From Opitutus sp. GAS368 (lineage in GTDB: Bacteria; Verrucomicrobiota; Verrucomicrobiia; Opitutales; Opitutaceae), in assembly GCA_945861645.1 (NCBI GenBank), contig CAMAVZ010000011.1, positions 1 to 54,939 of the forward strand: 54,939 nt of DNA, written 5' to 3'. Each line of letters starts with the position of its first letter. Within the stretch, counting starts at the first letter, position 1. This document shows, one piece after another, positions 1 through 24,568 of this stretch. The notes beneath the pieces are model-generated. The model was given only the letters and a program-made list of their open reading frames with translations. It was not told the origin of the DNA and made no database searches. The translations under genes and the position numbers were made by a program.

Positions 1-99
1 GGGAGAAGGGAGAGGGGATGGTTGCCGCCACCAAGAGCGAAGTGCAAAAATGCCGAGGATCAGGTGAATGGCGTGGAGGACCCAGTAGAGGTGGAGAAG

Positions 100-610
100 A
101 GGAGGGACTATTGACCACTGACTACCGACTACAGTCCCACTTTCACCTACCCCTTTCACTATTTCCTCCCCGCCGCTGGCGGGGTTCACGGGCCACTTCA
201 GCCAGGCGTAGAGCAGATAGGCCGCAAGGTAGGGGATCAGGAAGGCCCAGCCGGAGCGGAAGTAGGATATCAGTAGTAGCGAGTAGCGAGTAGTGGGTAG
301 TGGGTAGTCTCTGCCTGATCGATCGCTTGATGGCGCCGGAGAGGAGGCGACTGCCTGACTGTTCGGGTGATTCAACACGGTGGGCAGTGAATCGCAACAA
401 CGTTCAACGCTCAACTCTCAACTTTGCTCGCGCGAAGCGCTCCAGTTGAAGCAGGGAGTTGAAGTTTAGGTTGGAAGACCCGTGTGCGGTGCAGACCAAG
501 GCGGTTCACCACGAAACACACGTACCGAGCGAAGCGACATAGGACATGACACGAAAACGACCAAGCAGGGTTAACCACGGATTGCGCGGATTCGATCTGG
601 ATAAAGCCAA
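100..610. repeat. Intergenic repeat mosaic
   Basis: 138-270 matches 2538-2701/5371-5516; heptamers GTAGCGA/GTAGTGG 273-309; TTGAAG/TTTAGG hexamers 445-477; CCACGAA/CCACGGAT nonamer units 506-605. Confidence 0.75.
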
Positions 611-651
611 AGATTTCAGTCTGCGCCGGTACTACGGCTGACAGGACGGGA

Positions 652-846
652 TCAGGCTCCTTTGGGGACTGCAATCGAGAGATTGCGGCAAATAGAACGG
701 GCCAAATGGCGCTTGATTTCATTGTGCCTTGGCACGGCTTCTTTCCGACCGGTGGCGGGGTTCACCCAAATCGAGTGACTTCCTCCCTCTCGAAGCAACT
801 GGCAACCCTCCTGCTGCATATGGGCCAGCAGCTCACGCCGCTTCAT
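652..846 (-). CDS. hicA: HicA family toxin (mRNA interferase)
   Basis: 64 aa, MKRRELL...REGGSHSIWVNP...VPRHNEI; HicA GSH motif; overlaps hicB stop (ATGA). Confidence 0.9.
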   Translation of the reverse strand: MKRRELLAHMQQEGCQLLREGGSHSIWVNPATGRKEAVPRHNEIKRHLARSICRNLSIAVPKGA

Positions 847-1058
847 ATCGCAATCGTGATTTCTTCAGCGGCTGGATCGTCTTTGAGTTGTTGCCGCCGT
901 TCCGTTTCGAGCAGTAGGCGCACGGCCGCGCTTAAATCAGCAAGGCACTCCTCTTTGGTCTCACCCTGTCCGTTGGCCCCTGGGACTTCGAGACAGGTTG
1001 CCCAAAAACCACCTTCGTCCGCTTCGCCTGGATGAACTATGGCTGTAAGCTTTGTCAT
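843..1058 (-). CDS. hicB: HicB family antitoxin (short, no DNA-binding domain)
   Basis: MTKLTAIVHPGEADEGGFWATCLEVPGANGQGETKEECLADL, HicB-like fold motif; start reassigned to ATG 1058 below promoter. Confidence 0.88.
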   Translation of the reverse strand: MTKLTAIVHPGEADEGGFWATCLEVPGANGQGETKEECLADLSAAVRLLLETERRQQLKDDPAAEEITIAI

Positions 1059-1064
1059 GGGGTT

Positions 1065-1093
1065 AAAATAGGCCGAACCCGAGGGACCGTCAA
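1065..1093 (-). promoter_or_regulatory. Putative sigma70-like leaderless promoter of hicBA
   Basis: TTGACG-17 nt-TATTTT-6 nt-ATG. Confidence 0.6.
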
Positions 1094-1109
1094 GTCCGAC
1101 CAAGGCAGG

Positions 1110-1335
1110 ACCCAACAGAAGACGGTGACTAGCGGGCCCTACTTCGCTCGTTGAGCTATTGAGGACGTGATGAAGGGCACGCGGTATGCGCTCTGTTAGC
1201 ACGTGGGCAGTGAACGGCAGCAACGGGCAACGCTCAATCCTCAACTTTTTACGTGGTGGCGGCAGGTGGTTGTGCGTCAAAACAACGCACAAGAACCTAG
1301 CCTGCATCCATCACACTCAGACGGGTGATGGATGC
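1110..1335. repeat. Palindromic repeats (CCCTACTTCGCTCG...GAAGGGCAC family and others)
   Basis: Also at 5540-5612, 7737-7776, 8663-8702; hairpin GCATCCATCAC..GTGATGGATGC at about 1304-1335. Confidence 0.75.
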
Positions 1336-1488
1336 ACCCTGTCGGGCCGACTTGGTCGGGGCGAACCGCGACCTGGTCGCCTTTTCGCGCTCGAAGAGCG
1401 CGGAAAGCGGATGCGACAAATAGGAAATCTTGTGATGCATTCGGGCTAGCGAGGTGGGAGGCGAGCGGTGACCCTACTTCGCTCTCCG

Positions 1489-1926
1489 CTACAACTTCGG
1501 CCAGAGCTTCAGGCCTTCCCCGGCGGCGGCTTTCGCTTGCCGCTTGTCATAGGTGATGAACCACCCCGCGCCGCATTCGAGCGCCTGGCCGATATGCAGG
1601 GCGTCCAGCGAGCGCAACCCGCGGTGCTGGCGCAGCAAATGGATGGCCCGGGTAAAAACTCCCGGCCAGTCGGCCTCGGGCCGGGCCAGCACCCCTCCCT
1701 CCAAATCTTTTTCCAGGGCGACCGTGATGCGGGTGACATCCACGGAAGTCAAATCTCCCTCCTCGCGCCGGCGTTCGAGAGCGTGGGTCAGCTCCAGCTC
1801 GTGCAAAGAGGAATAGGGCAGGGGCGGAGCGTGGCGGCGGACAAAGGTGGACAGCTCCACCGTCTCCGGCTCCCGCACGTAGAGTTTCACCAGCGCACTC
1901 GTGTCGAGGTAAAGATCGAAGGCCAT
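1489..1926 (-). CDS. vapC: PIN-domain (VapC) toxin
   Basis: YLDTSALVKLY...E...LRSLDALHI...FITYDKRQ PIN acidic motifs; start at ATG 1926. Confidence 0.9.
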   Translation of the reverse strand: MAFDLYLDTSALVKLYVREPETVELSTFVRRHAPPLPYSSLHELELTHALERRREEGDLTSVDVTRITVALEKDLEGGVLARPEADWPGVFTRAIHLLRQHRGLRSLDALHIGQALECGAGWFITYDKRQAKAAAGEGLKLWPKL

Positions 1927-1928
1927 GG

Positions 1929-2153
1929 TCAATCCCGCTCGGCGAGGATGGTGGCGCTTAGCGAGCGGCCCTTGATGCGGGTCGTGCGGAGGGCGAAGTC
2001 GGGCCACTGGCACTTCGTAACGCTCGGCTGCATGGGCACCAGGCGGGCGATGGTGCGGCGGCGGCGGGTGACGAGCACCTCCTGCCCCTGGACCACGTGG
2101 CGCATGACGTCGCTCAGGTGATGTTGCATGTGGCGCAAAGTGACGGATTTCAT
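1929..2153 (-). CDS. Phd/YefM family antitoxin
   Basis: MKSVTLRHMQHHLSDVMRHVVQGQEVLVTRRRRTIARLVP, Phd pattern; directly upstream of PIN toxin. Confidence 0.88.
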   Translation of the reverse strand: MKSVTLRHMQHHLSDVMRHVVQGQEVLVTRRRRTIARLVPMQPSVTKCQWPDFALRTTRIKGRSLSATILAERD

Positions 2154-2190
2154 GTGCTTCAAAATGACGCACAAGCCGGGCGGGTGTCAA
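2154..2190 (-). promoter_or_regulatory. Putative promoter with overlapping operator-like palindrome
   Basis: TTGACA-18-CATTTT-7-ATG; imperfect palindrome GTGCGTCATTTTGAAGCAC over the -10. Confidence 0.55.
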
Positions 2191-2370
2191 GGCCCGGGGC
2201 GGAAGACGGAGCCCGGTGGCCGGTCGACCGGAAGGTATGCTCGCGTAGATGGCTTGTGCGTCAAAACAACGCACGTGAGAACTGCGCGGGGTGCGGAGAG
2301 GGGACGGGGAAGCGGAAGGAGAGGGGAAAACCTGAAACCTGAAACCTGCGGTGGACTGAAAGAAGTGGAA

Positions 2371-2425
2371 TCAGACGACCGTCTCGGCGATAAAGGCGTC
2401 AAGCACCGGCGCGTCCGCTCCGAGT
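2371..2425 (-). pseudogene. 3' remnant of a hicB paralogue
   Basis: Encodes LGADAPVLDAFIAETVV*, matching the C-terminus LGADAPALDAFIAETTV* of hicB at 5046-5267; DNA similarity extends past the stop codon. Confidence 0.7.
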
Positions 2426-2479
2426 ATCAGATGCAGTGCGTGTAGAAACCAGTAGACGTGGAGGAGGGGAGGAACTAAA

Positions 2480-2730
2480 GAAGTGAGAGTGAAAGTGAAA
2501 GGGGGAGACGACCAGGCGGTGGACGGTAGGGCTCCGGCACTTTCACTCATCCCTTTCACTAATCCCTCCCCGCCAGGGGCGGGGTTCACCGGCCACTTCA
2601 GCCAGGCGTGTACCGTTGTTGGCTGGCTACCAACCCGGTATTTGTCCGGGCCGTCGCCCGGCAAAGAGATGAGGAAGGCCCAGCCGCTCCGGAAGTAGGA
2701 TTGGACCAGCGCTCCAAGCCTACTTCCGGG
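2480..2730. repeat. About 190 bp composite hairpin element
   Basis: Near copies at 138-270, 4170-4670, 5371-5516. Confidence 0.8.
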
Positions 2731-2845
2731 GAGGCCGAAGGCCGGATCATTCTTCGCCAAGTCTACGGGCAAAATGGGCTGAAGGCTGGAGGCTGGAGGG
2801 GACACGAAGGGCGGTGGCTCGCACAGTGCGGGAATTGATCTCGGG

Positions 2846-3688
2846 CTAGACCTTATCTTTTGGTGGCATGAGGCGGCGAGCGGCACCGTGGTCGGTGAGG
2901 GTTCGCATCTGCCGGATGGCGATTTGGTTCAACTTCGCCAGACGTTCACCTTGGGGTAGTTCCATGCGAATGAACTCGGCGTTCATGCCTTCTATGTTGG
3001 CGAGTACGAGCAGTTGCTCCACGGTGGCGTATTCCCGCATATTGCCTTCCAATCCGCGGTTGGCGGCGCGCCACTGCCTTGCCGTGTGGCCGAAGAGAGC
3101 GACGTTGAGCACGTCTGCCTCGGTGGCGTAGGTGATGGCAGCTTGGGCCTGAGTCACCTGACTGGGAATGAGATGCTCTTTAACTGCGTCGGTATGAATA
3201 CGGTAGTTGAGCTTGGAAAGAGTGCGATTGAGGTTCCACGCCAGCGATAGTCGGCGATTCTCGTCATCCTTTAGCCGCTGGAACTCCTTGATGAGGTATA
3301 GCTTGAACTCGGGACTCAGCCACGAACCAAATTCAAAGGCGATGTCATGGTGGGCGTAGGTGCCACCATAGCGGCCAGCTGTCGCGATCAAGCCCTTTGC
3401 TTGGGTGGCCTCGATCCACTTCTTGGCCGAAAGATAAAAACTGTTACGCCCGGCTTCATTTCTAATTCCCTCGAATTCGATGGAATTAAAACCGGGGTTA
3501 TTGATCCGCTCCCATACCCCGAGGAAGAGCACGGTATCCTTATTCTTGAGCCACTGTTCGATCAGTGCGCTGCCGCCGTCAAAATGGCGCACCATGTCAG
3601 TGAGAGAAATGTAGTCGCGAGCTTCCCGGGTGAGAATAGCAATGGTCGCACCTTGAACCTTGATGGTCGCTTGTTTCGATTTACTCAT
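2846..3688 (-). CDS. KilA-N domain DNA-binding protein
   Basis: DYISLTDM...WERINNPGFN...GRYGGTYAHHDIAFEFGSWLSPEFKLYLIKEFQRLK; start at MSKSK. Confidence 0.88.
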   Translation of the reverse strand: MSKSKQATIKVQGATIAILTREARDYISLTDMVRHFDGGSALIEQWLKNKDTVLFLGVWERINNPGFNSIEFEGIRNEAGRNSFYLSAKKWIEATQAKGLIATAGRYGGTYAHHDIAFEFGSWLSPEFKLYLIKEFQRLKDDENRRLSLAWNLNRTLSKLNYRIHTDAVKEHLIPSQVTQAQAAITYATEADVLNVALFGHTARQWRAANRGLEGNMREYATVEQLLVLANIEGMNAEFIRMELPQGERLAKLNQIAIRQMRTLTDHGAARRLMPPKDKV

Positions 3689-3762
3689 GCCTTCACGATT
3701 TTTGAGCGCTCTCTCATCTGCCCGCTGGCAGTCTGGCGCTGAAAGCAAGGCGGCGGTGCGCC

Positions 3763-4104
3763 TCATCCATGCAGGAGTATTCCTTCGCGGCGGACGGCGC
3801 TGGCCAATGAGCACACGACCTGCTGCCCCTCCTGCCATTCCTTCCGGGTCAGCACCACAATATCCTTGGGGGCGGCAATATCGCCAACGTAACGGCGTGC
3901 TTCGACATTCCTGTGGTAACGCGATTGAGTAGATTCGGGTACAATCACCATAAGGTCCAAGTCACTGTCGACATTCGCCTCCCCCCGGGCATGCGAGCCG
4001 AACAAATAAATCGCATCGGGATGCAGCGCTTTTTCCAGGCGTTGAGCAATCAGGAGGGAAGCCTCAGGAATTGCCGGACGATCAGCGTGTGCAGGTGAAA
4101 TCAT
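3763..4104 (-). CDS. Minimal nucleotidyltransferase (MNT) antitoxin-like protein
   Basis: IYLFGSHARGEANVDSDLDLMVI = GSx10DxD MNT motif; AGGAG SD and TTGCAG-16-TAACGT upstream. Confidence 0.88.
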   Translation of the reverse strand: MISPAHADRPAIPEASLLIAQRLEKALHPDAIYLFGSHARGEANVDSDLDLMVIVPESTQSRYHRNVEARRYVGDIAAPKDIVVLTRKEWQEGQQVVCSLASAVRREGILLHG

Positions 4105-4169
4105 ACTCCTGCGGCTACGTTAGGCTGAGACTTGAGTGCTGCAAGAATGAAGAGAGTCCCCTGGCTTCT

Positions 4170-4700
4170 GCACTTTCACCGATAACTGATACTGCCTGCC
4201 ACCACTGGCGGGATTCACCGGCCATTTCTGCCAGGCTTTACCGTTGTTGGTTGGCTACCAACCCGGTACATGTCCGGGCACCCTGTTGCTTGCTGCTGCC
4301 AGCCCGGGGTCAGTCGCGCCGCCTGCGCGGCGGCTGAAGTCGCCCGGCATGGAGCAGATACGTGGCGAGGTAGCACCGTTGTTGGTTCGCTACCATCCCG
4401 GTATTTCGGCCGTCGCCCGGCAAAGGGTGAAGGAAGGCCCAGTCGCTCCGGCATAGAGCAGATAAGGCGGCGAGGTAGCACCGTTGTTGGTTTACTACCA
4501 ACCCGGTATGCCCTGTTGATGCCTGCTGGCATCACGGGGTTCGTCCACCGGCCTACGCCGGGGCGAATGTCCTCAGTTCTCGCTTTCGCGAAACAGAGGC
4601 AAAGGGATCAGGAAGGCCCAGCCGGATCGGAAGTAGGATTGGAGCAGCGCTCCAGATCTATTTCCGGTGGAGAAAGGAGAAAGGAAAAGGGAGAAGGGAC
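4170..4700. repeat. Hairpin mosaic
   Basis: Three (T/C)ACCGTTGTTGG..CCA(A/T)CCCGGTA hairpins plus TGCCCTGTTGATGCC.. and TGTCCTCAGTTCT.. modules shared with 12091-12245. Confidence 0.8.
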
Positions 4701-4793
4701 GGGCTAGGGGCATGACGTATCTTGCGTGAGATGCTGGTGAGGCGCCGGGGTGGTGCTGGGCGAAGCGGAAAGCAACGGCACGCCGCGGCGGTG

Positions 4794-5033
4794 TCAGGCA
4801 CGCTCGTAGGCCGACAGGAAATCCTCACGCGTAATACTCGACTGCCGCAGAATCAGCCGGAGCGTTGAGCCTTTGATTTTCGCGTGGTTGGGCAGGGTCA
4901 ACGGCGTGCGGGTGCCGTCGGGATTCTGACGGAGCATGGCGATGTGCTCGCGTTCGCGCACCAAGGTAAAGCCCAGCGCGACCAAGGTTCGCACCACACG
5001 GGCTTTGGGGACGTCGCGGGGAAATTTCGACAT
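4794..5033 (-). CDS. hicA: HicA family toxin
   Basis: ARVVRTLVALGFTLVREREHIAM...LTLPNHAKIKGSTLRLILRQ. Confidence 0.85.
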   Translation of the reverse strand: MSKFPRDVPKARVVRTLVALGFTLVREREHIAMLRQNPDGTRTPLTLPNHAKIKGSTLRLILRQSSITREDFLSAYERA

Positions 5034-5045
5034 CGACCGGTGGAA

Positions 5046-5267
5046 TCAAACGGTCGTCTCGGCGATAAAGGCGTCAAGCGCAGGCGCATCCGCCCCAAGC
5101 CCATCAGCGCCAAAGGTCTTCAGGTGAAACTTGATCGCGGATTTCACATCCTGAAGGGCCTGTTCAAAAGTATCCCCCTCTCCGACCACCACACCGTTCA
5201 CGCCCACCGGGTAGGCCACATAGCCATCGGCGTGCTTCTCCACAATGATCTTCAAGGTCTTGTTCAT
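5046..5267 (-). CDS. hicB: HicB family antitoxin (short)
   Basis: MNKTLKIIVEKHADGYVAYPVG...GEGDTFEQALQDVKSAIKFHL. Confidence 0.85.
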   Translation of the reverse strand: MNKTLKIIVEKHADGYVAYPVGVNGVVVGEGDTFEQALQDVKSAIKFHLKTFGADGLGADAPALDAFIAETTV

Positions 5268-5274
5268 GTCGGCG

Positions 5275-5302
5275 AAAGTAGCGCTTTTGACCGGAGTGAC
5301 AA
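5275..5302 (-). promoter_or_regulatory. Putative leaderless promoter of second hicBA
   Basis: TTGTCA-16-TACTTT-7-ATG. Confidence 0.55.
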
Positions 5303-5370
5303 GGGCGAAGGAGCGCAAGGAAGATGGAGCCCTTCGACCTTGCTCGGGGCGGGCAGGGAGGAGGCTGCGC

Positions 5371-5870
5371 CACTTTCACTCTTCCCCCGCCGTTCACGGC
5401 GTTGACGGGCCATTTCAGCCAGGCGTGTACCGTTGTTGGCTGGCTACCAACCCGGTATATGTCCGGGCCAGTCGCCCGGCAAAGGGATCAGGAAGGCCCA
5501 GCCGCTCCGGAAGTAAGCCACCAGTTGACGGTGACTAGCGGGCCCTACTTCGTTCGTTGAGCTTCCTCCGTCGCTCGTTGAGCTATGGAGGACATGATGA
5601 AGGGCGCGCGGTGGTCGGTCTGTTAGCACGGTAGACTATGGCTCGCGGAGCGAGCCAGTTTAAGTTGGCACTGTTGCCGCATGCTCGCGGCACAAGTATT
5701 TGTCCTGCGTTCTTGGGTGCTGCACACCCAAAACGCAGGCAAAAAGTTGAAGTTGAAGAGAAAGGCAGCCTGCGGAGGCGGATGGTGGGCGGTGGGCGGT
5801 GGCGGCGAAGCCGCACGGCAGCCGGTCTGACGGTGGGCGCCAGCAACCAATATCGCTCAACATTCAACGG
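5371..5870. repeat. Hairpin mosaic
   Basis: Composite element, nested CCCTACTTCG hairpin and GCGAGCCAGTTTAAG/TGTCCTGCGTTCTTGGG modules. Confidence 0.8.
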
Positions 5871-5878
5871 GCAGATTT

Positions 5879-6229
5879 TCAATGTTCAGCTTGGCCGAGG
5901 TTGTGCAGCATCTTCTCCACGGCGATAATTAGCGGGGCTAGGTCATTTTGGGCGGCATCCCAAAGAATGGCATGATCAGTCTCGTCGTAGCCATGGCTGA
6001 GCCGGTCGCGGGTCCCGGCGATTTGCTTCCAGGGTATTTCGGGATGCTCGGCCACAAGGCTAGTGGGTAGGCGTTTGACGGCTTCGCCAAGTATCTCCAT
6101 CTCGCGTTCAAATGCGGCCGCCAGCTTCCAATCTTGGGTAATGGCGGCCAATGAACTGGTGGCGATAAACTCCTGCAAGCGGCGGGCGTGAACCAAAATC
6201 TGGCGCAAGGTGACGCTTGGCGCGATCAC
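5879..6229 (-). CDS. HEPN/DUF86 (HepT-like) RNase toxin
   Basis: EILGEAVKRL...HPEIPWKQIAGTRDRLSHGY = RxxxxH-Y HEPN motif; GTGA overlap with MNT. Confidence 0.9.
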   Translation of the reverse strand: MIAPSVTLRQILVHARRLQEFIATSSLAAITQDWKLAAAFEREMEILGEAVKRLPTSLVAEHPEIPWKQIAGTRDRLSHGYDETDHAILWDAAQNDLAPLIIAVEKMLHNLGQAEH

Positions 6230-6537
6230 GCCTGCTCATAAATCGGCAGCGCCTCGCGCATGACGGTGTTGCGATAATCCCGGTTCAGCATGGCGGGGGT
6301 GTTCAAGTCTACGCTACGACCGATGATTCCGGCCAGTTCGTCGCCGTAGCCGAAGAAACGAAAGCCGGTTCGGGCCTTGGGGTCCATTTCCACCAGCACG
6401 TCGACATCGCTGTGCTGGAGATCGAAATCGTCGCGCAAAACGGAGCCAAACAGGCTGAGTTTGCGGATGCCGCGGGCATGACAAAACTCCGCAATAGCCT
6501 TGCGGTCCAAGTCGACGGGGAGTGTAGCAACCTTCAT
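6226..6537 (-). CDS. MNT (MntA-like) antitoxin
   Basis: LSLFGSVLRDDF...SDVDVLVE...GRSVDL. Confidence 0.9.
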   Translation of the reverse strand: MKVATLPVDLDRKAIAEFCHARGIRKLSLFGSVLRDDFDLQHSDVDVLVEMDPKARTGFRFFGYGDELAGIIGRSVDLNTPAMLNRDYRNTVMREALPIYEQA

Positions 6538-6580
6538 GCTCTCAGGCTGGCGATTCCAGCGCGGGAAGCAAGCCGTGGTT

Positions 6581-7031
6581 GGCGGCGCGCGGAGCGCGCC
6601 AGTTTAAGCGGGAAGTTTAAGTTGAAGATCGGGGCGATGGCGGAAAAAGATGAAATCGGAAAAGAAGAAAATTGGGAAACTAAGGCGCGTGGCGCGCCAA
6701 TTGAAGGCGGAGGTTTAAGTTTAAGATTCGGAGCGATGGCGAAAAAAGATGAAACAGGGGAAAGAAGAAAATTGGGAAACTAAGGCGCGGAGCGCGCCAG
6801 TGCCCTGTTGATTTTTGCTAACATCCCAGGGTTCGGCCGACGTTCTCGTGCGTGAGTACGCATGAAACGTAGGCGAAGAAGTTGGCGCTGTTGCCGCATG
6901 CTCGCGGCACAAGTGTGCCCTGTTGATGCCTGCTGGCGTCACGGGGTCCGTCAGCCGGCCTGCGCCGGGCGGATGTCCTGCGTTCTTGGGTGCTGCGCAC
7001 CCAAAACGTGGGCATAAAGTTTAAGTTGAAG
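6581..7031. repeat. Hairpin/periodic repeat mosaic
   Basis: Two GAAAAAGATGAAA..GGGAAACTAAGGCGCG units plus a hairpin string nearly identical to 8508-8657. Confidence 0.85.
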
Positions 7032-7102
7032 TAAAAGGCACCCAGCTATGGCGCGGCAAGCGGTGCATCAGGCGGCCTGCAAGAGATGGACGGTGGACGG
7101 GT

Positions 7103-7372
7103 TCAGTCAATATATACGGTTGAGCGGTGTCCGACGGCGACGACTACGACAATGAGAACGGACTTTTCGAGACGGCAGAGCAGTCGCCAGTCCCGGACGC
7201 GGTAGCGCCAGAGGCCATGCTTGGAACTTCGCAGCGGTTTGCCAAATAGTTCTGGGTCGGAGCAACCCTCAATGCGCTTTTCCAGCCAAGCTGTAATCTC
7301 GGCGCGAGCGGCAGGACCAAGCTGGTCGAGCTGCCGGTTCGCGTCTTCGAGGATTTTATACGACCAGGCCAC
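7103..7372 (-). CDS. relE: RelE/ParE family toxin
   Basis: GKPLRSSKHGLWRYRVRDWRLLC...VVAVGHRSTVY; GTG start at 7372 overlapping antitoxin end. Confidence 0.88.
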   Translation of the reverse strand: MAWSYKILEDANRQLDQLGPAARAEITAWLEKRIEGCSDPELFGKPLRSSKHGLWRYRVRDWRLLCRLEKSVLIVVVVAVGHRSTVYID

Positions 7373-7658
7373 CGAGAAATTCTTTGCGGGTGAGTAGCCG
7401 AGATTTACCGGCCAGATGCTTTTCCCAAGCAGCATCCCCGAGACGGGCATCGCGTTCGTCCTCGACGGATTCAAGGAGCGCGGCGGCGAGTCGCTCTAAG
7501 CGGGCCAGCTTGGCATCGTCCGAGGCCGGGGGCCCGGCCAAGGCTGCGCGCTTGATGTAGGCGGAGGGGCTCAGCCCGCGCTTGCGGGCGAGGGTGGCGA
7601 TTCGGCGCTTTTCTGCCGGACTGAGGCGGATGGAGGTGGGAATTGTCGTGGCGGCCAT
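7356..7658 (-). CDS. RHH-like antitoxin (RelB/CopG-type)
   Basis: TSIRLSPAEKRRIATLARKRGLSPSAYIKRA RHH-like N-terminus, acidic C-terminus; upstream of relE; palindrome ACTACA-CT-TGTAGT at 7661-7674. Confidence 0.75.
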   Translation of the reverse strand: MAATTIPTSIRLSPAEKRRIATLARKRGLSPSAYIKRAALAGPPASDDAKLARLERLAAALLESVEDERDARLGDAAWEKHLAGKSRLLTRKEFLGGLVV

Positions 7659-7853
7659 GCACTACAAGTGTAGTCGATCGGAGGGGGAGTCAAGGCCGGT
7701 CGGATACCGGTGGACGGTCGGATACCGGTGGACGGTGGGCCCTACTTCGCTCGATGAGCTATGAAGGGCACGCGGTGGGCGGTAGGGGCACGGAGAACGG
7801 TAGACGGTGGGATCGGGCGGGACTTCACCGAGGCAAGTGGAGGATACTGAGGG

Positions 7854-8195
7854 TCAAAGCGGCAGGCGATAAGTGGCGATGATCTTGCGGCCGATCTGCC
7901 GGCGGCGTTCAGGGGTGACCCGACCAATGCGAGTGGTGATCTTGCGCCGGTCAACGGAGTAGAGATGGCCACAACTGAAAAGAGTGGGGTGGTCGAGTCC
8001 GTCGGCACCGTTGAGCGTGACGTGATACGGACGCGGCTGGATAGCCGGCCGGCGGGTGCTGCCGTACAGAACATTTATCTGAGGCTTGCTGGAGTCGGCG
8101 CAAAACTCGTCGCAGGTGATAACGACGGCAGGGTGCTCGTCTTCGTCTTGGGGATTTATGCGGACCCGGACAATGTCCCACTGGGTGATGTTCAT
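7854..8195 (-). CDS. mazF: PemK/MazF family toxin
   Basis: QWDIVRVRINP...HPAVVI...SVDRRKITTRIGRV, MazF/PemK pattern; ATGA overlap with AbrB gene. Confidence 0.75.
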   Translation of the reverse strand: MNITQWDIVRVRINPQDEDEHPAVVITCDEFCADSSKPQINVLYGSTRRPAIQPRPYHVTLNGADGLDHPTLFSCGHLYSVDRRKITTRIGRVTPERRRQIGRKIIATYRLPL

Positions 8196-8440
8196 AGGTC
8201 CTCTGGGCCGAGGTCCGGGCCGGCCAGCTTGTCGAGTTCATAGTCCCATTTCGACAGTTTCAGCGAGCCGGGCGGAGGATAGTCGATGGGCTCAAAGGCC
8301 GGCAAGGCATCGGACGGACGGAGGAACAGGCCGCCATCTCGTTCCTCGATTTCTAGCTTGGAGCGGGCCTTGAGCCGGAGGCGGCGGCGCATGGGCGCCG
8401 GCAGGACGATCTGGCCTTTGCTGGAGAGGGTGAGTTGCAT
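8192..8440 (-). CDS. AbrB/MazE/SpoVT family antitoxin
   Basis: LSSKGQIVLPAPMRRRLRLKARSKLEIEERDGGLFLRP. Confidence 0.9.
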   Translation of the reverse strand: MQLTLSSKGQIVLPAPMRRRLRLKARSKLEIEERDGGLFLRPSDALPAFEPIDYPPPGSLKLSKWDYELDKLAGPDLGPEDL

Positions 8441-8480
8441 GGCTTACTTTTTCCTACGCAGGTTTATTTGTCAAGAAACG

Positions 8481-8705
8481 ATGGCGCGCGGAGCGCGCCA
8501 GTTTAAGTTGGGCGCTGTTGCCGCGTGCTCGCGGCACATGTGTGCCCTGTTGATGCCTGCTGGCATCACGGGGTCCGTCAGCCGGCCTGCGCCGGGCGGA
8601 TGTCCGACGTTCTTGGGTGCTGCGCACCCAAAACGTAGGCAAAAGTTTAAGTTGAAGATCGGGGGCCCTACTTCGCTCGATGAGCTATGAAGGGCACGCG
8701 GTGGG
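8481..8705. repeat. Hairpin mosaic
   Basis: Matches 6882-7031 and 37468-37585. Confidence 0.85.
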
Positions 8706-8752
8706 CGGGGCATGCTGGCGGGACATAGCGCCATAGTCATTCGTCGTAGCGT

Positions 8753-9160
8753 TTAGGAAAACGGATTGAGGGTGTTGACGCCGGAACGTTGGAAGTCGGC
8801 GGTATTGCGCGTGACGACGGTGAGTTTGTGTTGGAGGGCGGTGGCGGCAATCAGTCCATCTGTGACCGGGAGTGGTTGATTGAGACACAACCGTCCCCAG
8901 CCATCGGAAATAACAGAAGTGACCGGCAAAATACGCTCCGTGTAATGAGCTTCCAATCCGAGCAGCCAGCGTTCAAGCGCGCCGGCCGCTTTGGCATCTT
9001 TGGGCCGATGGAGCTCAATGCCCCGGCGGATTTCACCCAGGCTGAGCACACTTAGGAATGCCTCGTCTGGCTGGATGCTGGACATCCAGTCGGCCACGCC
9101 CTGGTTGCAGTGCGGCTTCCGCAGCTCGGAAATAACGCAGGTGTCGATGAGGTAAGCCAT
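8753..9160 (-). CDS. vapC: PIN-domain VapC/FitB toxin
   Basis: YLIDTCVISELRK...LGEIRRG...DGLIAATA...VVTRNTADF...NPF. Confidence 0.93.
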   Translation of the reverse strand: MAYLIDTCVISELRKPHCNQGVADWMSSIQPDEAFLSVLSLGEIRRGIELHRPKDAKAAGALERWLLGLEAHYTERILPVTSVISDGWGRLCLNQPLPVTDGLIAATALQHKLTVVTRNTADFQRSGVNTLNPFS

Positions 9161-9396
9161 CAGATCTCAATCGTGCGCGGCAGATCCGTTGACCGGGGAA
9201 ACGGGATGGCTTTCCCTGGTGGGATACAACGAAGGTAGGCGAGGAAGTCGCGTTGGGGACCAAGCTTGTCCCCAGCCAGGACGGAGCGCAACAGACGGCG
9301 GTGAGCTTCTTCGACCGAGATGCCTTGGGCGGCGGCGCGACTGCGGAGCTTTTTTACCACAAAGGATTCGATGTCACGGACGAGGAGTTGAGGCAT
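9160..9396 (-). CDS. FitA-like RHH antitoxin
   Basis: MPQLLVRDIESFVVKKLRSRAAAQGISVEEAHRRLL. Confidence 0.88.
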   Translation of the reverse strand: MPQLLVRDIESFVVKKLRSRAAAQGISVEEAHRRLLRSVLAGDKLGPQRDFLAYLRCIPPGKAIPFPRSTDLPRTIEI

Positions 9397-9402
9397 GGCA
9401 AG

Positions 9403-9431
9403 AGGATGCTATCAGTGATAGCAATAGTCAA
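9403..9431 (-). promoter_or_regulatory. Putative promoter with perfect operator-like palindrome
   Basis: TTGACT-17-CATCCT-6-ATG; TGCTATCA-N-TGATAGCA at 9407-9423. Confidence 0.7.
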
Positions 9432-9444
9432 GGGGGAGGTCTTT

Positions 9445-9726
9445 TTAGTTTAAGTTGGAAGATCGGGGCGATGGCGGAAAAAGATGAAATCGGGAAAGTA
9501 AGGCGCGTGGCGCGCCAGTTTAAGTTGGAAGTTTAAGTTTAAGTGACGGATGCAGACGGAACCGAGATTTGCTAACTTAAACTTCAACTTTACACTTCAA
9601 CTGGAGCGCAGCGCGACTAGCGCCAGTTTAAGTTGGCACTGTTGCCGCATGCTCGCGGCACAAGTATTTGTCCTGCGTTCTTGTGTGCTGCACACCCAAA
9701 ACGCAGGCAAAAAGTTTAAGTTGAAG
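9445..9726. repeat. Hexamer-periodic inverted repeat plus hairpin string
   Basis: GTTTAAG arms versus CTTAAAC/CTTCAAC arms; 9622-9726 matches 5655-5758. Confidence 0.85.
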
Positions 9727-9746
9727 CAGGATTTCCTCGAGGGTCC

Positions 9747-10559
9747 TTACAATACGTCGGCGAAGGCTGGCTTCATGCGCTTGAAGGCGAGATGGCCGAG
9801 CGCGCACGTTATCAGACCAGTGGCATACAAATAACCGAGGTGGCTATAGTTGATCGGTTGCAGCCAGAGCGCGGCCGCACGGGCTTCTTCAATGGCTAGC
9901 AGCACGGGATTGAAGCGCATGTATAGCCAGGCGGCGTCGGGAATCATCCGCGCTGAATAAAATACCGCGCTCGAGAACATCAGGGCCAGGGTGAGAAATT
10001 GCATGATCTGACTGACGTCTCGGAAAAATACTCCCAGCGCTGAAACCAACCACGCAAGCCCCAGACAAAGTAAAATCAGCGGAAAAATAATGACGGGCAA
10101 CCACAGCAAACTCCAACTCATCGCATGGCCGCAGCATAACAAACTGAGCAGCACTAAACCTAAGCTGATTAATAAATGAATCAAAGCCGCCCCCACGTTG
10201 GCCGCTGGCAAAATCTCTAACGGGAAAACCACCTTCTTCACGAAATTTGGATTCCCCACAATCAAGCTGGGTGCGAGCGCGAGCGTTTCCGCTAAGAGAT
10301 GAAAAATAGTCAGACCAATAAAAATACCGAGAGCGTAATCCACCCGCGTCTCACCAGGGATCACCCCAAAACTGCCGCCGAAGATATACCCGAAAACTAA
10401 AACATACAGCGCGAGCATCAACAGCGGACTCAGGAACGACCAAATTAACCCTAAATGGCTGCCTTTGTGCCGTAGTTCTACGTTGCGCAGGGTGAACTGC
10501 CAGAGGAGTTCACGGTGCGTCCAGAGATCAGCTGCAAAGGGAAGGAGGCGGCGAAGCAT
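9747..10559 (-). CDS. wzm: ABC-2 polysaccharide export permease (Wzm)
   Basis: RHKGSHLGLIWSFLSPLLML...GNPNFVKKVVFPLEILP...FRDVSQ...FADVL. Confidence 0.9.
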   Translation of the reverse strand: MLRRLLPFAADLWTHRELLWQFTLRNVELRHKGSHLGLIWSFLSPLLMLALYVLVFGYIFGGSFGVIPGETRVDYALGIFIGLTIFHLLAETLALAPSLIVGNPNFVKKVVFPLEILPAANVGAALIHLLISLGLVLLSLLCCGHAMSWSLLWLPVIIFPLILLCLGLAWLVSALGVFFRDVSQIMQFLTLALMFSSAVFYSARMIPDAAWLYMRFNPVLLAIEEARAAALWLQPINYSHLGYLYATGLITCALGHLAFKRMKPAFADVL

Positions 10560-10562
10560 GGA

Positions 10563-11152
10563 TTTTTAAGGTGTAAGGGATAAGGTGTAGGTTTTTAAGC
10601 CTGAAGACGAGTAGAACATTGGAGCGATCAGGGCGGTGGCGGAAAAGATGAAATAGGAGAAAGTAGAAAATCGGGAAACTAAGATCCGGATCGACCAAGG
10701 CATTTTTAACCACGAAGGGCGCAAAATGACGCGAAGGGGGGGGCGGAAAAGATGAAACTTTGGAAAGTGGAAATCAGGAAACTCGGAATCGGCCTTTTGG
10801 ATTTAATCCAGATCGTATCCGTGCTGTGTTCCCACATCGCCCGGTGGGCACCCGCTGCGGTCACCCCTGCTCCCGCTGCTGCGGTAGTCGGGGCCACGCC
10901 TGGGGCGTGACCATCTCCGCGCTACAGCGCTCCGTCCGTGGTTAAATTGGTTTGGGATCGTACCAAGACAGTGGAGGGAAAAATGAAATAGTAGAAAGTA
11001 GAAAATTGGGAAACTAAGATCCGGATCGACCAAGGCATTTTTAACCACGAGGGGCGCAAAATGACGCGAAGGGGGGCGGAAAAGATGAAATCGTGAAAGT
11101 AGAAAACTAAGGCGCGTGGCGCGCCAGTTGAAGTTGGACGTTTAAGTTGTAG
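10563..11152. repeat. About 130 bp direct repeats flanking a 154 bp element also present at 50706-50859
   Basis: 10641-10770 resembles 10977-11105; 10802-10955 resembles 50706-50859. Confidence 0.85.
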
Positions 11153-11176
11153 CGAAAATGCACCCAGCGTTAGCAC

Positions 11177-11359
11177 TCACAGTTTCCAATGGCTTCCGCC
11201 TTCGATGGGTTTGCCTTTGGCACCTGGCGCGAAGCAACTGGCAAATTTGGCAAAGGCCAGGTATTCGCTGACCGGTCGGCGAGGCCATTGCCGTGGCGGT
11301 GGGGTCACCGGCTTGGTCCGACGCAACTGCGCACGTTCAATCTCGGTCAGGGAGGCCAT
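11177..11359 (-). CDS. Small hypothetical protein coupled to nucleotidyltransferase
   Basis: 60 aa ORF overlapping the NTase stop by 23 nt, same strand. Confidence 0.5.
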   Translation of the reverse strand: MASLTEIERAQLRRTKPVTPPPRQWPRRPVSEYLAFAKFASCFAPGAKGKPIEGGSHWKL

Positions 11360-11900
11360 GGTATTTTTTTAGCTCGTCCAGCCTGTCTTCCAAGCGAAAT
11401 ATCTTCAGATAGTCGATGATCAGGGCCCAATCGATGGCGGTGTCTTGCTCCCGCGCTGCTTCCAGGATCATCCGGATGTCCGCCCAATCGCGCGTCGCCC
11501 GCGCTGGATTGTTGACCACGGCTTGCACCTTCAGTCCGATAATGTCTTCCAAATGCACCACGCGGATCGACAGCCCATCAAGCACGGGTAGCGCTTCGGC
11601 CCGCTGGAGCATTCCCAGGGTTGGGCCCCGGAAGGCGTGAAGGATGTCGATGCGGCCCCAGTCGCCGGCCGTCGATTGATACTGGGAGACATCGGGCGAA
11701 TGGAAGATGCGTTCATAACCGAAGCCCCGGATAATTTCATCCGCTTTGCCCAGATCTTCCAGCATGAGGATAAAATCGAGATCCATGGTCGCCCGCTGCA
11801 CTCCGCGCAACCCCATGGCAAAACCGCCGATCAGCGCATAGTTGACTCCGGCCGCCTCCAGCGCGCCTACGACCTTGCGAATGACGAGTTCAAAGTCCAT
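11337..11900 (-). CDS. Nucleotidyltransferase-fold protein (DUF6036/AbiEii-like)
   Basis: YALIGGFAMGLRGVQRATMDLDFI...RIDIL...EDIIGLK...DWADI; start at MDFELV. Confidence 0.8.
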   Translation of the reverse strand: MDFELVIRKVVGALEAAGVNYALIGGFAMGLRGVQRATMDLDFILMLEDLGKADEIIRGFGYERIFHSPDVSQYQSTAGDWGRIDILHAFRGPTLGMLQRAEALPVLDGLSIRVVHLEDIIGLKVQAVVNNPARATRDWADIRMILEAAREQDTAIDWALIIDYLKIFRLEDRLDELKKYHGLPDRD

Positions 11901-12090
11901 GCGGGGAAAAGAGGGCGGCGTGTTGGGCGGTTGCTTCGTCAGCTGCGCCACCCGCCGGCGGATGTTTTTGCGGGGTCAGCATGGCGGCAGTGAACGGCGG
12001 CTACGCTCAGCATTCAACTTTTAACGCTCAAGTGAAAGATCGGCCAAAGCGGAAGAGCCGGTGGCCCCACCGTCGCCAAACCGCGGCAAG

Positions 12091-12250
12091 TACCGTTGTT
12101 TGCCTCTGCAAACCCGGTATGCCCTGTTGATGCCTACTGGCATCCCGGGGTTCGTCCACCGGCCTGCGCCGGTGCGAATGTCCTCAATTCTCGCTTTCGC
12201 GAAACAGAGGCACGTCCCGTTGTGGTGTGCTCGCCACCCGGGATTTGTCC
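12091..12250. repeat. Hairpin string
   Basis: Near copy of 4479-4601. Confidence 0.8.
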
Positions 12251-12292
12251 ACGGTTCTGGCGCGTCATCCGTCGCCAAACCGAGGTAAAAGA

Positions 12293-12589
12293 TCAGGCGA
12301 CTTGCAAGGGCTGGACGGTGGCCTTGATTTTTGGACCAAGCGCGTGAATCGCCTCGCGCAGGTCATAGGCGAGTTGGACCCTCAGCCAATAGCCAGGCGT
12401 CTGGCCAAAATAGGTGGAAAGATGGAGATCGGTTTCCGCGGTGATCCCGCGCTTCTCGTTGACGATTTCGTTGGCGCGCTGCTGGGGGAGCTTCGCGTCT
12501 TTCGCCAGTCGGTAGGGCGTGAGGCCCATGGGACCAAGAAACTCCTCTCGGAGTAGTTCGCCGGGATGGACATTGCGGTGCTTTTTCAT
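12293..12589 (-). CDS. higA: HigA family HTH antitoxin (orphan)
   Basis: VHPGELLREEFLGPMGLTPYRLAK...EIVNEKRGITAET...YW..Q..YDL. Confidence 0.93.
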   Translation of the reverse strand: MKKHRNVHPGELLREEFLGPMGLTPYRLAKDAKLPQQRANEIVNEKRGITAETDLHLSTYFGQTPGYWLRVQLAYDLREAIHALGPKIKATVQPLQVA

Positions 12590-12592
12590 GGT

Positions 12593-12607
12593 TTAGTGAT
12601 AGTCGGT
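12593..12607 (-). pseudogene. Terminal remnant (TDYH*) of higB toxin
   Basis: ACC GAC TAT CAC TAA lies 3 nt before the higA ATG; DYH* is the usual HigB C-terminus; upstream sequence is repeat DNA. Confidence 0.6.
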
Positions 12608-12938
12608 GGCGCGCGGCGTAGCCGCACGCCAGTTTAAGTTGGAAGTTTAAGTTGGAAGTTACGGATGCAGACGGAACCGGGATCTGCTGACTTAAACTTC
12701 AACTTTACACTTAAACTATCGGACGCGAAAGCGTAGGGCGCTGGCACGCTAGTTTAAGGATAAAGTTTAAGTTGAAGTGAAATTCAGCCGGTCGGACGAG
12801 GCTCGCGGAGCGCGCCAGTTTAAGCGCAAGGCGCTAGTTTAAGTTGAGAGTTTAAGATTGGGGGCGTACGGAACGGGGATCTGCTGACTTAAACTTCAAC
12901 TCCAAATTTCAACTAGCGCGGTCAGCCGCGCTGGGCGC
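12607..12938. repeat. Two hexamer-periodic inverted-repeat elements
   Basis: Same core ACGGAAC.GG.ATCTGCTGACTTAAACTTCAACT as 9500-9619, 13511-13630, 37571-37660. Confidence 0.85.
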
Positions 12939-12939
12939 T

Positions 12940-13227
12940 TCAGGATTTTAGCCGTTTGATAAATTGAGCCTCGAAGAGTTCGTACACCAGCTGGCGCTCC
13001 TCAATGAAGAGCACTTCGATAGCCCCATCGGCTGCGTAGGCGAAAAGGATGCGATGGCGGCCCACCCGGAGTCGATAGTAGCCCGAAAGATTGGCTTCGA
13101 GGGCACAGATGTCGCCTCGCTCCTCGCGCAGCTCGGTGAGGGCTTGCTTGATTGCACGCCGAGGCTCCGGCGCGAGCCGGCGGACATAGTCGATCACTAA
13201 AGTAGAGGGACGAACGACACGGCTCAC
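12940..13227 (-). CDS. relE: RelE family toxin
   Basis: DICALEANLSGYYRLRVGRHRILF...IEERQLVYE; GTGA overlap with Phd gene. Confidence 0.82.
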   Translation of the reverse strand: MSRVVRPSTLVIDYVRRLAPEPRRAIKQALTELREERGDICALEANLSGYYRLRVGRHRILFAYAADGAIEVLFIEERQLVYELFEAQFIKRLKS

Positions 13228-13472
13228 CCGGAGAGATCCTCCAGCCGGCCGAACTTAGTTCGGCCGGCCTGATGCTCAGCAATGGCGTGCATCGCCGCAG
13301 CGTTCCCCATGATTTCGAGGGTCTCGGCAATAGCACTCATGCGCGCATGGCCGATCACGCAGGCGACGGATTTGTCATGACGGGTGACGGTAACGACCTT
13401 CCCCTTCTCGGCCGCCTTCACGAGGGCGGGGAAGGCATCTTGGCCTTCGGAAATGCTGACGGTAGATTTCAT
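13224..13472 (-). CDS. Phd/YefM family antitoxin
   Basis: TVSISEGQDAFPALVKAAEKGKVVTVTRHDKSVA...ETLEIMGN. Confidence 0.88.
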   Translation of the reverse strand: MKSTVSISEGQDAFPALVKAAEKGKVVTVTRHDKSVACVIGHARMSAIAETLEIMGNAAAMHAIAEHQAGRTKFGRLEDLSG

Positions 13473-13510
13473 GAATTAACCTGTAGATCGTGGTGTACGA
13501 AAGTCAAGTA

Positions 13511-13717
13511 TGGCGCGCGGCGCAGCCGCGCGGAGCACGCCAGTTTAAGGGTAAAGTTTAAGTTGAAGATCGGGCGTACGGAACGGGAATCTGCTGACTT
13601 AAACTTCAACTTTACACTTAAACTATCAGCAGCTGGGGCCACCGCTCCGAATCCCCAATCTTAAACTTAAACTCCCAACTCCAACTAACCCATGGCGCGC
13701 TTCGCGCGCCATGGGTT
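13511..13717. repeat. Hexamer-periodic element plus perfect hairpin
   Basis: Element as above; AACCCATGGCGCGC-TTC-GCGCGCCATGGGTT at 13687-13717. Confidence 0.8.
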
Positions 13718-13771
13718 TTCCTGTTGCCAAATTGGGGGCTTTGCGGCGCCCTCTAGCTTATTAAATTATTC

Positions 13772-18466: not shown

Positions 18467-18845
18467 AACGCAGTCGGCCGCGGTCCGCGGTGGGGCAGTA
18501 GGGTGGGGGCGAAGCTAGTTGGTCTGCGGCGATTCCTAGGGTGACCACAAAAGGCGCAAGAGGCGCAGAATCAAACAAGCCATTTAACCATGAAGAACGC
18601 CCACTGACGCGAAGGGTGCAGGCTTAAACCTTAAACCTTATGACTTATAACTATTCCCCTCGTGGCATAGCGCATTTCTTGGCTTGGCGGGGTTGGGCGG
18701 CGAGGGGCGGGTGCATTTTCCGCTCGGTTAGGGTGATTAGGGAGAAAAACGCAGAGCTTGGTGGCGCTAATAATTGATTTGAGGGGTGTTGGGCAGGAAA
18801 ATTTGTTTTACATTGGGGGAGTGGCTTCTTTTCTTTGGCCCAACT

Positions 18846-19072: not shown

Positions 19073-19732
19073 ATGTCTAAGATTTTCCCCAAATCAGCCA
19101 ACGCTCTGCCGCTGCAGATCTTGATTTTTCTTGGTGTCCTCGGCGCAGTCGCCGCCGCGGGGATTACCTATTATGCGACCCCCGCTTATTTGCGGGTCGG
19201 CTACCAGCCGGTGCAGCCCGTCCCCTTTGATCATAGTCTCCACTCGGGTCAGTTGGGCATGGATTGCCGTTATTGCCATACCTCGGTGGAGAAATCGGGA
19301 ACGTCGAGCGTCCCCGCGGCCCAGACTTGCATGAATTGCCACAGCATCATTAAGTCAGCGAGTCCGCTGCTTGAGGTCGTGCGCAAGAGCTATGAGACGG
19401 GTGACCCCGTGCCGTGGGTGAAGATTCACCAAGCGCCCGATTACGTTTATTTTAATCATTCGGTCCACGTAAACCGCGGGGTTAGCTGCGTCGAGTGTCA
19501 CGGCAAGGTGAATGAAATGACCACCGTCTATCACGCCATGCCGCACAGCATGAGCTGGTGTATGGACTGCCATCGCAATCCCGCCCAGCGCATCCGTAAT
19601 CCCGAAGATGTTTACAATCTTGATTCGGCCCCGCTCGCGGCGCAAGGCCCTGAGGGTTTGAAGACGGCCGAGAAATTTATTCATGACTGGAAGGTTAAAC
19701 CGCCGCAAAGCTGCTCCGGTTGCCATCGCTGA
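19073..19732 (+). CDS. actA: Alternative complex III pentaheme cytochrome c
   Basis: Five CxxCH motifs (CRYCH, CMNCH, CVECH, CMDCH, CSGCH), N-terminal TM. Confidence 0.93.
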   Translation: MSKIFPKSANALPLQILIFLGVLGAVAAAGITYYATPAYLRVGYQPVQPVPFDHSLHSGQLGMDCRYCHTSVEKSGTSSVPAAQTCMNCHSIIKSASPLLEVVRKSYETGDPVPWVKIHQAPDYVYFNHSVHVNRGVSCVECHGKVNEMTTVYHAMPHSMSWCMDCHRNPAQRIRNPEDVYNLDSAPLAAQGPEGLKTAEKFIHDWKVKPPQSCSGCHR

Positions 19733-24556: not shown

Positions 24557-24568
24557 ACCGCTGCGACC

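Follow-up and report, generated by a model that had tools for sequence, protein, structure and literature searches.

A repeat-spaced toxin-antitoxin islet with single-module turnover at a surface-polysaccharide locus of Opitutus sp. GAS368

How did eight toxin-antitoxin (TA) pairs come to be packed into about 13 kb of a bacterial chromosome? This question is raised by a locus of Opitutus sp. GAS368, lying on the stretch of DNA that we call the window, which is the whole of contig C11 (CAMAVZ010000011.1; 54,939 nucleotides) from a 2.3-Mb genome assembly of 84% completeness (GCA_945861645.1). The first-pass annotation of the window had described a co-oriented, cassette-like array of minimal TA units separated by repeats, and had proposed an integron-like platform with a hairpin site class of its own and its recombinase encoded elsewhere. 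The eight pairs were confirmed where that annotation had placed them, all on the minus strand and all with open frames (Table 1). Seven of the eight toxins passed the Pfam cut-offs, the RelE at 12940 being weak (E 0.008), and both HicB-like partners gave only weak matches to domains of unknown function (DUF). The genes of the array that belong to no such pair encode KilA-N, an orphan MNT, an orphan HigA and an AbiEii-like pair. A tblastn search with 47 TA and TA-array protein queries revealed one further TA pair in the rest of the assembly (contig C24), and the array holds both HicA hidden Markov model matches, the single ParE match and two of the four PIN matches of the genome; the TA density in the array is far above chance. 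According to our analysis, the array is real, dynamic and not an integron: it is a repeat-scaffolded TA islet with documented shuffling of single modules.

Since the window comes from a metagenome-assembled genome (MAG) and reaches a contig end, and no single record spans the array, a mis-assembly that joined unrelated TA modules through their shared repeats has to be considered, but we regard it as scarcely credible. Eight sequencing runs from three studies contain 89-94% of the words of positions 600-10599, and run X3, from an independent study, covers the array in pieces with 0-1 differences and bridges the odd junction at 2425. Pieces of run X13 bridge rhh-relE to mazF, and the independent contigs of the related loci L147, L114 and L118 keep parts of the order. 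The runs containing window sequence are lake metagenomes, and RNA runs contain part of the stretch.

A housekeeping gene, wzm, sits inside the array, and tblastn with homologues from relatives identified positions 1-345 as the 5′ end of a large membrane-protein gene, here called memN. For these two reasons the array is seen as two expanded gene junctions, of ~9.4 and ~3.2 kb, flanking wzm in a surface-polysaccharide locus. Matches to wzm were found in 31 of 60 relatives, and 20 of these loci were read for synteny; the interval between wzm and tolC held no gene in 13 of them, one DUF218 gene in 2 and TA genes in 2, and tolC was not nearby in 3. Because memN directly follows wzm in some relatives (L013, L023, L160, L169 and L173), the left end of the array probably lies near 345, and the suggestion that the array continues past the start of the window is probably wrong; the contig end leaves this unproven, as the copy at 1..345 could be another memN fragment. 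The look-alikes of memN in the Atlas are membrane glycosyltransferase-like, with no family named.

The comparison across relatives bore out the idea of a cassette-like hotspot, with gain, loss and reordering of modules and changed junctions in near relatives. Downstream of wzm the window carries fitA-PIN, mazEF, rhh-relE, MNT-hepT, hicBA, MNT, kilA, phd-PIN and hicBA, and the module sets at this position differ in all six near-relative loci (L112, L113, L114, L118, L147 and L178). L147 has fitA-PIN, mazEF and a DUF433 gene; L114 has mazEF, a DUF4143 ATPase, rhh-relE and hicBA; L118 has rhh-relE and hicBA; L112 has a TacA/GNAT pair that points the other way; and L113 retains the 3′ half of a PIN gene fused to the A arm, the commonest spacer repeat here. 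A Phd/RelE pair stands downstream of wzm in L178 and upstream of it in L031, L115 and L121. The wzm-tolC interval was met empty (L119 and L141), with one pair (L031 and L121), with three units (L115 and the window) and with other sets (L113 and L114). In genome G020 (L037), rhh-relE is followed by mazEF, which is the reverse of the window order.

Some modules far exceed the adjacent wzm in identity (99.6 vs 93.8% in L113, 96.0 vs 72.1% in L118 and 98.9 vs 94.9% in L147), which points to recent horizontal swapping. Others fall below it, namely hicBA (83.8%) and mazF (74.0%) of L114, where wzm is 92.4% identical; with identities on either side of that of wzm, the modules are exchanged one by one. 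Phd/PIN pair 1, whose 99.6% copy in L113 is incomplete, has homologues of 75-79% identity at unrelated loci of three species. All modules are co-oriented in the window, but L112 has them reversed, as does L083 in relation to the repeats, and their orientation is mixed in L033-L035; a TA orientation fixed relative to the repeats is contradicted by L083 and L112. Judging from the orphan HigA, the orphan MNT and the PIN gene cut short, toxins are lost first, and the 18-codon frame that follows the orphan MNT may be a HEPN stub.

The expectation that breakpoints would fall in the repeats held for some of the breakpoints only. In G028 a TA insert of 1225 bases lies between 37-base direct copies of the A arm, present as a single copy in G004; two units were added inside a mosaic in L115 as compared with L121; 259 bases are missing between two heptamer arms in L147; and a heptamer run left unbroken in L118 holds MNT-hepT in the window. 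Other breaks lie inside genes or at microhomologies, as in PIN (L113), the last mazF codons (L147), higB and hicB (window) and the empty and filled site of L119 and L121. Duplicated gene ends are also involved: an AbrB/PIN pair lies between 36-base copies of the memN 5′ core in L219, memN fragments occur in L042 and L190 (in the latter bracketing polysaccharide genes), and second wzm 3′ ends are found in L118 and L178. In runs X9 (depth 31) and X10 (depth 15), position 2425 is joined to 5101 without 2426-5100, that is, without the 2.7 kb between two hicB-end copies. The run comparison used contigs and counted joints alone, not low or missing cover, and joints with a short side were ignored as probable other copies of repeats. 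Breakpoints use no single nucleotide and no single site class.

Several further observations concern these gene ends. The memN 5′ core is a recurrent insertion point, and the N-terminal part of memN contains in-frame heptamer runs in several species (window 1-345; L013:1-666). In L118 and L178, ~80 bp of a window-type wzm 3′ end follow the stop codon of a divergent wzm allele, with heptamer arms between. The contig end of G004 C79 (L031:3163-3207) is presumably adapter-like sequence from sequencing, which cuts off wzm there.

The shared repeats claimed for the spacers occupy 3562 of 6216 non-genic bases, vs 146 of 7544 genic bases, but they are found outside the array as well: these mosaics recur at 28 further sites of the genome, three of which are the query junctions themselves, and none stands beside a TA found by tblastn. 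The spacers are a mixture of such genome-wide repeats, which, like the scattered breakpoints and the reversed modules, disagrees with a single class of hairpin site. Four kinds were distinguished: tandem arms, a double hairpin, duplicated gene ends and one MITE-like element (MITEs are miniature transposable elements with inverted repeats). The tandem arms have units of 7 and 9 bases, and several match arms around genes of the genus for four-helix-bundle (PF05635) and GxxExxY (PF13366) proteins (78-100% over 20-45 bases). The A arm was not found around any four-helix-bundle or GxxExxY gene; it is present in 7 of 65 genomes, five of them members of the close clade and two with single matches at control level. 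The duplicated gene ends comprise three extra memN 5′ ends, a hicB 3′ end, a higA 3′ end and the last higB codons. For the MITE-like element (1297-1450), on which 30 of the 46 matches in G020 fall, no transposase was identified.

The double hairpin, of ~55 bases with fixed ends and centre, is genus-wide and lies mostly between ordinary genes; it inserts into the A arm as blocks of 75 and 131 bases, at nearly the same spot each time. Among 18 copies of the first hairpin, pairing holds in 98.6% of cells, and both sides have changed in 6 of the 8 pairs, although the structure was drawn from these same related copies and the covariation controls are overstated accordingly. No cognate enzyme of the double hairpin was found in our searches. 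The element was also noted at 2613-2665 and in L265-L283, in L268 apparently inside an open frame. Ten of the 12 spacer pieces fold better than all 200 of their shuffles, while the D repeat and the element at 10830-10945 fold no better than shuffles (z 0.73 and -0.18). Of 44 asymmetric spacer motifs, 43 are co-directional, the motifs having been defined on that strand, and an Rfam scan of 1-14000 gave no match up to E 1.

Four close genomes carry different mosaic combinations at the same junctions. From these combinations and the 28 sites without TA genes, it follows that the mosaics recombine among themselves, with or without cargo. In the window, cargo-free mosaics lie between housekeeping genes at 18545-18652, 37331-37860, 50411-51020 and 53631-53983, with differing combinations in G004, G016 and G028. 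At the lolE-lolD junction, G000 and G004 differ by 364 bp, with a short TGA-GGCC microhomology. Elsewhere in the genome of the window (L096; C4:77094-77549), a GxxExxY gene stands in 28-bp inverted arms between two pyrimidine-pathway-like genes, and one of these arms recurs exactly in the mosaic at 53.8 kb of the window. Large TA arrays also occur within nucleotide-sugar or capsule operons of the genus (L035:1-8000 of G015, L034 and L033), in mixed orientation and with other repeats.

The modules themselves are minimal, each consisting of its own -35 box, an antitoxin, a toxin and a stop codon. A TTGAC lies 34-37 bases before the first start codon in six of the eight pairs, against a background of 31 in 1496 long open reading frames (ORFs), and TTGTC or TTGCT takes this place in the other two; no TTGAC promoter was found for the AbiEii-like pair. 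A generic sigma-70 scan was discarded as promoter support (2 sites vs 4.8 expected), and the evidence for the -35 boxes is one of position. In other species the similarity to a module begins at the -35 box and ends at the toxin stop codon; at 70-80% identity, such ends may reflect selection rather than precise module ends. The description of every unit as minimal and repeat-bounded is too clean, a higB fragment, a higA tail and a hicB tail being present. Most TA units lie between direct copies of mosaics, not between one inverted pair of arms. Two-gene TA-like modules between two mosaics, some with no Pfam match, were also found at L114:575-968, L115:1204-1654, L083:402-951 and L036:1924-2536. 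The Phd/PIN promoter palindrome (GTGCGTC-N5-GACGCAC type; 1270-1290, 2154-2175 and 2254-2274) also stands free between the modules of three other species (L033-L035), and an operator may therefore serve as a dispersed repeat too.

Superintegrons typically carry self-promoted TA cassettes, which makes an integron cassette array without its integrase, a CALIN (attC sites in a cluster without an integron-integrase), a candidate; the co-orientation of the modules and the IntI-like matches in 24 of 36 genus genomes agree with it. It is nevertheless very improbable. With 18 attC sites of the genus as its basis, a covariance model detected no site in the array (best 9.5 bits, E 1.9) or in 13 TA-array loci, whereas 4 of 10 further IntI loci yielded 12 sites (27-61 bits). 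The R'' box, RYYYAAC, is absent downstream of the 12 modules inspected, blastn of the array against 20 IntI loci gave no match, and a core gene lies inside. A rule-based attC scan returned one weak match, at 402-464. Contig C3 gave weak attC-like blast matches, which on inspection were attributed to chance. Complete integrons with uniform attC sites of ~66 bp are common in the genus (L052, L055, L056, L058, L059 and others), and their IntI frames are long, ~330-570 amino acids (aa).

The claim of a recombinase encoded elsewhere was not supported either. The own genome, at its 84% completeness, holds three tyrosine recombinases only: XerD, a XerC-like protein and a phage-like integrase. Neither IntI nor the Y1 family of RAYTs (transposases associated with repetitive extragenic palindromes, REPs; PF01797) was found in the four close-clade genomes G000, G004 (99% complete), G016 (94%) and G028 (80%), although Y1 transposases occur in 30 of 36 genus genomes; resolvase, IS110, DDE_Tnp_1 and reverse transcriptase were likewise not found in these four. 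A link to RAYTs was dismissed, a spacer module being present in 1 of 40 RAYT loci, ~3 kb from the gene (40 loci out of ~200 matches), and no GTAG-type guide was recognized by eye 5′ of the hairpin, where the bases vary among copies. With an XerD-arm motif and up to 2 mismatches, no dif site was found on this contig, and there were 5 loose matches elsewhere in the genome.

A dedicated enzyme acting in trans, such as the GxxExxY PD-(D/E)xK nuclease, a four-helix-bundle protein or an unrecognized HUH-like protein, could instead cut and join arms or double hairpins and make the array a non-integron cassette platform. The spacer modules that match arms enclosing GxxExxY and four-helix-bundle genes speak for this, as do the minimal modules, the hairpin double changes together with the conserved bulges, the TA pairs between two mosaics at other clade loci (L036, L083 and L288) and the presence of GxxExxY in all five genomes searched, including the four of the close clade. 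However, the breakpoints lie at varied positions, including gene interiors, the flanks belong to at least five repeat classes and to plain gene ends, searches of G000 and G016 found no four-helix-bundle gene, and most mosaics have no cargo. We therefore hold such an enzyme to be rather unlikely. To our knowledge, no activity has been assigned to GxxExxY or four-helix-bundle proteins. It is equally doubtful that a GxxExxY nuclease, the most plausible enzyme, serves an integrase-free platform that captures TA units from promoter to stop codon, stacks them by polysaccharide genes and trades them between species.

On balance we lean, with limited confidence, towards a TA islet that grows and shrinks at the two junctions flanking wzm, where, once DNA has been taken up, dispersed repeats would provide ordinary recombination with portable homology. 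A TA pair bracketed by two copies of a repeat or gene end would be looped out by RecA-type recombination, and a pair could be inserted by a crossover at another copy of the repeat after uptake via ComEC and DprA. Of the five genomes searched, four had ComEC and all five had DprA. Illegitimate joints at short homologies would produce truncated genes and extra gene ends, while addiction and co-orientation with the operon would favor accumulation. No site-specific recombinase would be needed. The repeats probably spread first as selfish hairpin elements, namely the four-helix-bundle/GxxExxY arms and the REP-like double hairpin.

The same data can be read with the repeats as bystanders, the TA pairs arriving in larger blocks by exchange at tolC, wzm or memN or as decayed mobile elements. 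The duplicated wzm 3′ ends (L118 and L178) and memN 5′ ends (window, L042, L190 and L219) indicate exchange anchored in core genes, repeats are few or of other kinds in the TA arrays of further species of the genus (L033-L035), and such a route has been proposed for the TA islets of Photorhabdus (PMC13617665). Yet single modules were gained or lost mid-array between repeat copies (G028 and G004; L115 and L121; MNT/HepT in the window and L118), the spacer between the same two modules was rewritten in L147, and the same module occurs on either side of wzm. We consider passive repeats an improbable explanation, albeit one to be taken seriously.

Several points weigh against recombination at portable homology. 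Many shared stretches are only 25-60 bp long with 80-95% identity, which is short for RecA, and the first acquisition of two flanking repeats by a new TA pair is left unexplained. No excised circle was seen among the contigs of the runs, which alone were compared. The -35 box often lies 0-25 bp from a repeat, and such strikingly tight ends could mean precise capture instead of selective trimming, while the fixed ends, bulged bases and covarying stems of the double hairpin suggest a protein reader. MAGs lose repeated insertion sequence genes, and the enzyme searches are therefore no proof of absence. Finally, of 32 memN loci, 6 have TA-like genes in the 6 kb upstream of memN, directly so in 4, a count in which 4 of the 32 loci were read at the wrong place and one of the six repeats L042.

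Compatible with growth and shrinkage through the repeats is the possibility that selection maintains the cluster as an anti-phage island at a polysaccharide locus serving as phage receptor. Its position in a polysaccharide export locus and the fast turnover between strains would fit, and PADLOC reports candidates for KilA-N (PDC-S22, E 7e-128), both MNTs (PDC-S09) and the L114 ATPase (PDC-S01). Against this, the 24 proteins scanned include no validated defense system and only these four candidates, and toxins are being lost (orphan HigA, orphan MNT and incomplete PIN). In the study on Photorhabdus, TA clusters rarely co-locate with defense systems and behave as selfish elements (PMC13617665). 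Maintenance as an anti-phage island is thus unlikely, and selfish addiction would seem the more probable cause.

Table 1. Features of the array and its borders, from 5′ to 3′ of the window
Feature	Position	Strand	Remarks
memN 5′ end	1..345	-	600-900 aa in relatives; probable left boundary; GT-C-like glycosyltransferase as a lead only
HicB-like/HicA pair 1	genes 652-1058, unit 652..1093	-	Pfam HicA E 2.7e-11; own -35 TTGAC; 84% allele in L114 and L118
MITE-like insertion between two CTAGC copies	1297..1450	.	missing in run X13 (joint 1301-1458)
Phd/PIN pair 1	genes 1489-2153, unit 1489..2190	-	Pfam; 21-bp direct copies of operator-like palindrome at 1270-1290 and 2254-2274 (self-blast)
Duplicated hicB 3′ end, fused to memN fragment	2365..2425	-	87% to 5040-5099
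memN 5′ copy 2	2410..2757	-	double-hairpin element inside (2613-2665)
KilA-N protein	2846..3688	-	PADLOC candidate PDC-S22
Orphan MNT antitoxin	3763..4104	-	Pfam NTP_transf_2; followed by overlapping 18-codon frame
memN 5′ copy 3 with nested hairpin elements	4196..4672	.	
HicB-like/HicA pair 2	genes 4794-5267, unit 4794..5302	-	Pfam HicA E 1e-7
memN 5′ copy 4 and repeat mosaic	5373..5878	.	5654-5758 is 98% identical to 9622-9726
MNT/HepT (type VII) pair	genes 5879-6537, unit 5879..6571	-	missing between same neighbors in L114 and L118
Repeat mosaic: A and F arms, double hairpins	6572..7102	.	remnant of higA 3′ end at its end (7067-7096)
Ribbon-helix-helix (RHH)/RelE pair 1	genes 7103-7658, unit 7103..7693	-	RelE start probably 7372; 95-96% copies in L114 and L118
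46-bp repeat	7737..7782	+	identical to 8663-8708; the two bracket mazEF and one mosaic
MazE/MazF pair	genes 7854-8440, unit 7854..8474	-	Pfam
Repeat mosaic	8476..8752	.	different mosaic between same two modules in L147
FitA/PIN pair 2	genes 8753-9396, unit 8753..9431	-	98.9% copy in L147
Repeat mosaic with long heptamer hairpin	9432..9746	.	hairpin z -7.9; L147 version 259 bp shorter, both ends in heptamer arms
wzm, polysaccharide ABC-2 permease	9747..10559	-	Pfam ABC2_membrane; resident anchor gene inside array
Repeat mosaic: F, H and I arms	10560..11176	.	four-helix-bundle/GxxExxY cassette-type arms
AbiEii-like nucleotidyltransferase and 60-aa ORF	11177..11900	-	homologous pairs in L034 and L035
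Chain of five imperfect hairpins, double-hairpin family	11961..12292	.	
Orphan HigA	12293..12607	-	TIGR02607 above cut-off; higB reduced to last codons, abutting A repeat (vs intact higBA in L041)
A-arm mosaic, alternating heptamer arms	12608..12939	.	
Phd/RelE pair 2	genes 12940-13472, unit 12940..13507	-	94.9% copy in L114
A-arm mosaic and terminator-like hairpin before tolC promoter region	13511..13717	.	
tolC-like gene	13772..15145	+	right boundary; adjoins wzm in most relatives

Beyond the features of Table 1, the window contains at 19073-30074 what we take to be an alternative complex III-like operon, with cytochrome c, a molybdopterin/Fe-S subunit, an NrfD-like subunit and cbb3-like subunits.

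Judged by its gene content and turnover, the array would belong to the TA islets described in Photorhabdus, which are likewise clusters flanked by core genes, often without mobility genes, with high turnover and toxin-first loss (Belot et al., 2026; PMC13617665). For those islets, transformation and homologous recombination have been proposed, and one pair there is bracketed by a duplicated palindrome; however, those clusters are for the most part pairs, with links to Tn3-type transposases and res sites, whereas our array has eight pairs in 13 kb, repeat mosaics between them, swaps of single modules and no transposase found in the clade. The spacers resemble the REPs and bacterial interspersed mosaic elements (BIMEs) of Escherichia coli, which are described as imperfect short hairpins in intergenic mosaics varying by strain (Ton-Hoang et al., 2012, PMC3333891; PMC3184786), and capture of flanking gene fragments has been noted for them (PMC3333891). 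The array differs from the REPtrons treated there by having no RAYT in the clade, no GTAG guide, several unrelated repeat classes and whole TA operons as cargo. With sedentary integrons and CALINs (Cury et al., 2016; PMC4889954), it shares the outcome, co-oriented and self-promoted TA units being gained, lost and reordered, but it lacks IntI, attC and a single site type, has breaks inside genes and encloses a core gene. The heptamer arms resemble the TAACTGA heptamer repeats of Beggiatoaceae, in whose description toxins or antitoxins are mentioned 0 times (PMC4679880).

Arms of 7- and 9-mers matching our spacer modules also enclose the four-helix-bundle and GxxExxY cassettes, but here the arms are gene-less, concatenated and placed between TA operons. 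Intergenic heptamer repeats are known from cyanobacteria as short tandemly repeated repetitive (STRR) sequences. In the pdif modules of Acinetobacter plasmids, TA pairs form small exchangeable units; in contrast, no dif-like site is present on our contig. No description of TA arrays spaced by such mosaics was found in the full-text literature, a scope that excludes most subscription papers and supplements.

The movement of chromosomal TA systems without a visible mobile element is an open question, according to the Photorhabdus study (PMC13617665). The present locus offers a concrete route, in which two operon junctions become, through dispersed selfish repeats and duplicated gene ends, an array with modules traded singly among strains and species, and its filled, empty and reordered states are present in public data. 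The locus also links heptamer-armed cassettes to gene traffic. If a dedicated enzyme were involved after all, these arrays would represent a new class of cassette system parallel to integrons, with programmable-looking recombination. Integron-like behavior can arise without IntI or attC, and integron finders therefore miss such arrays.

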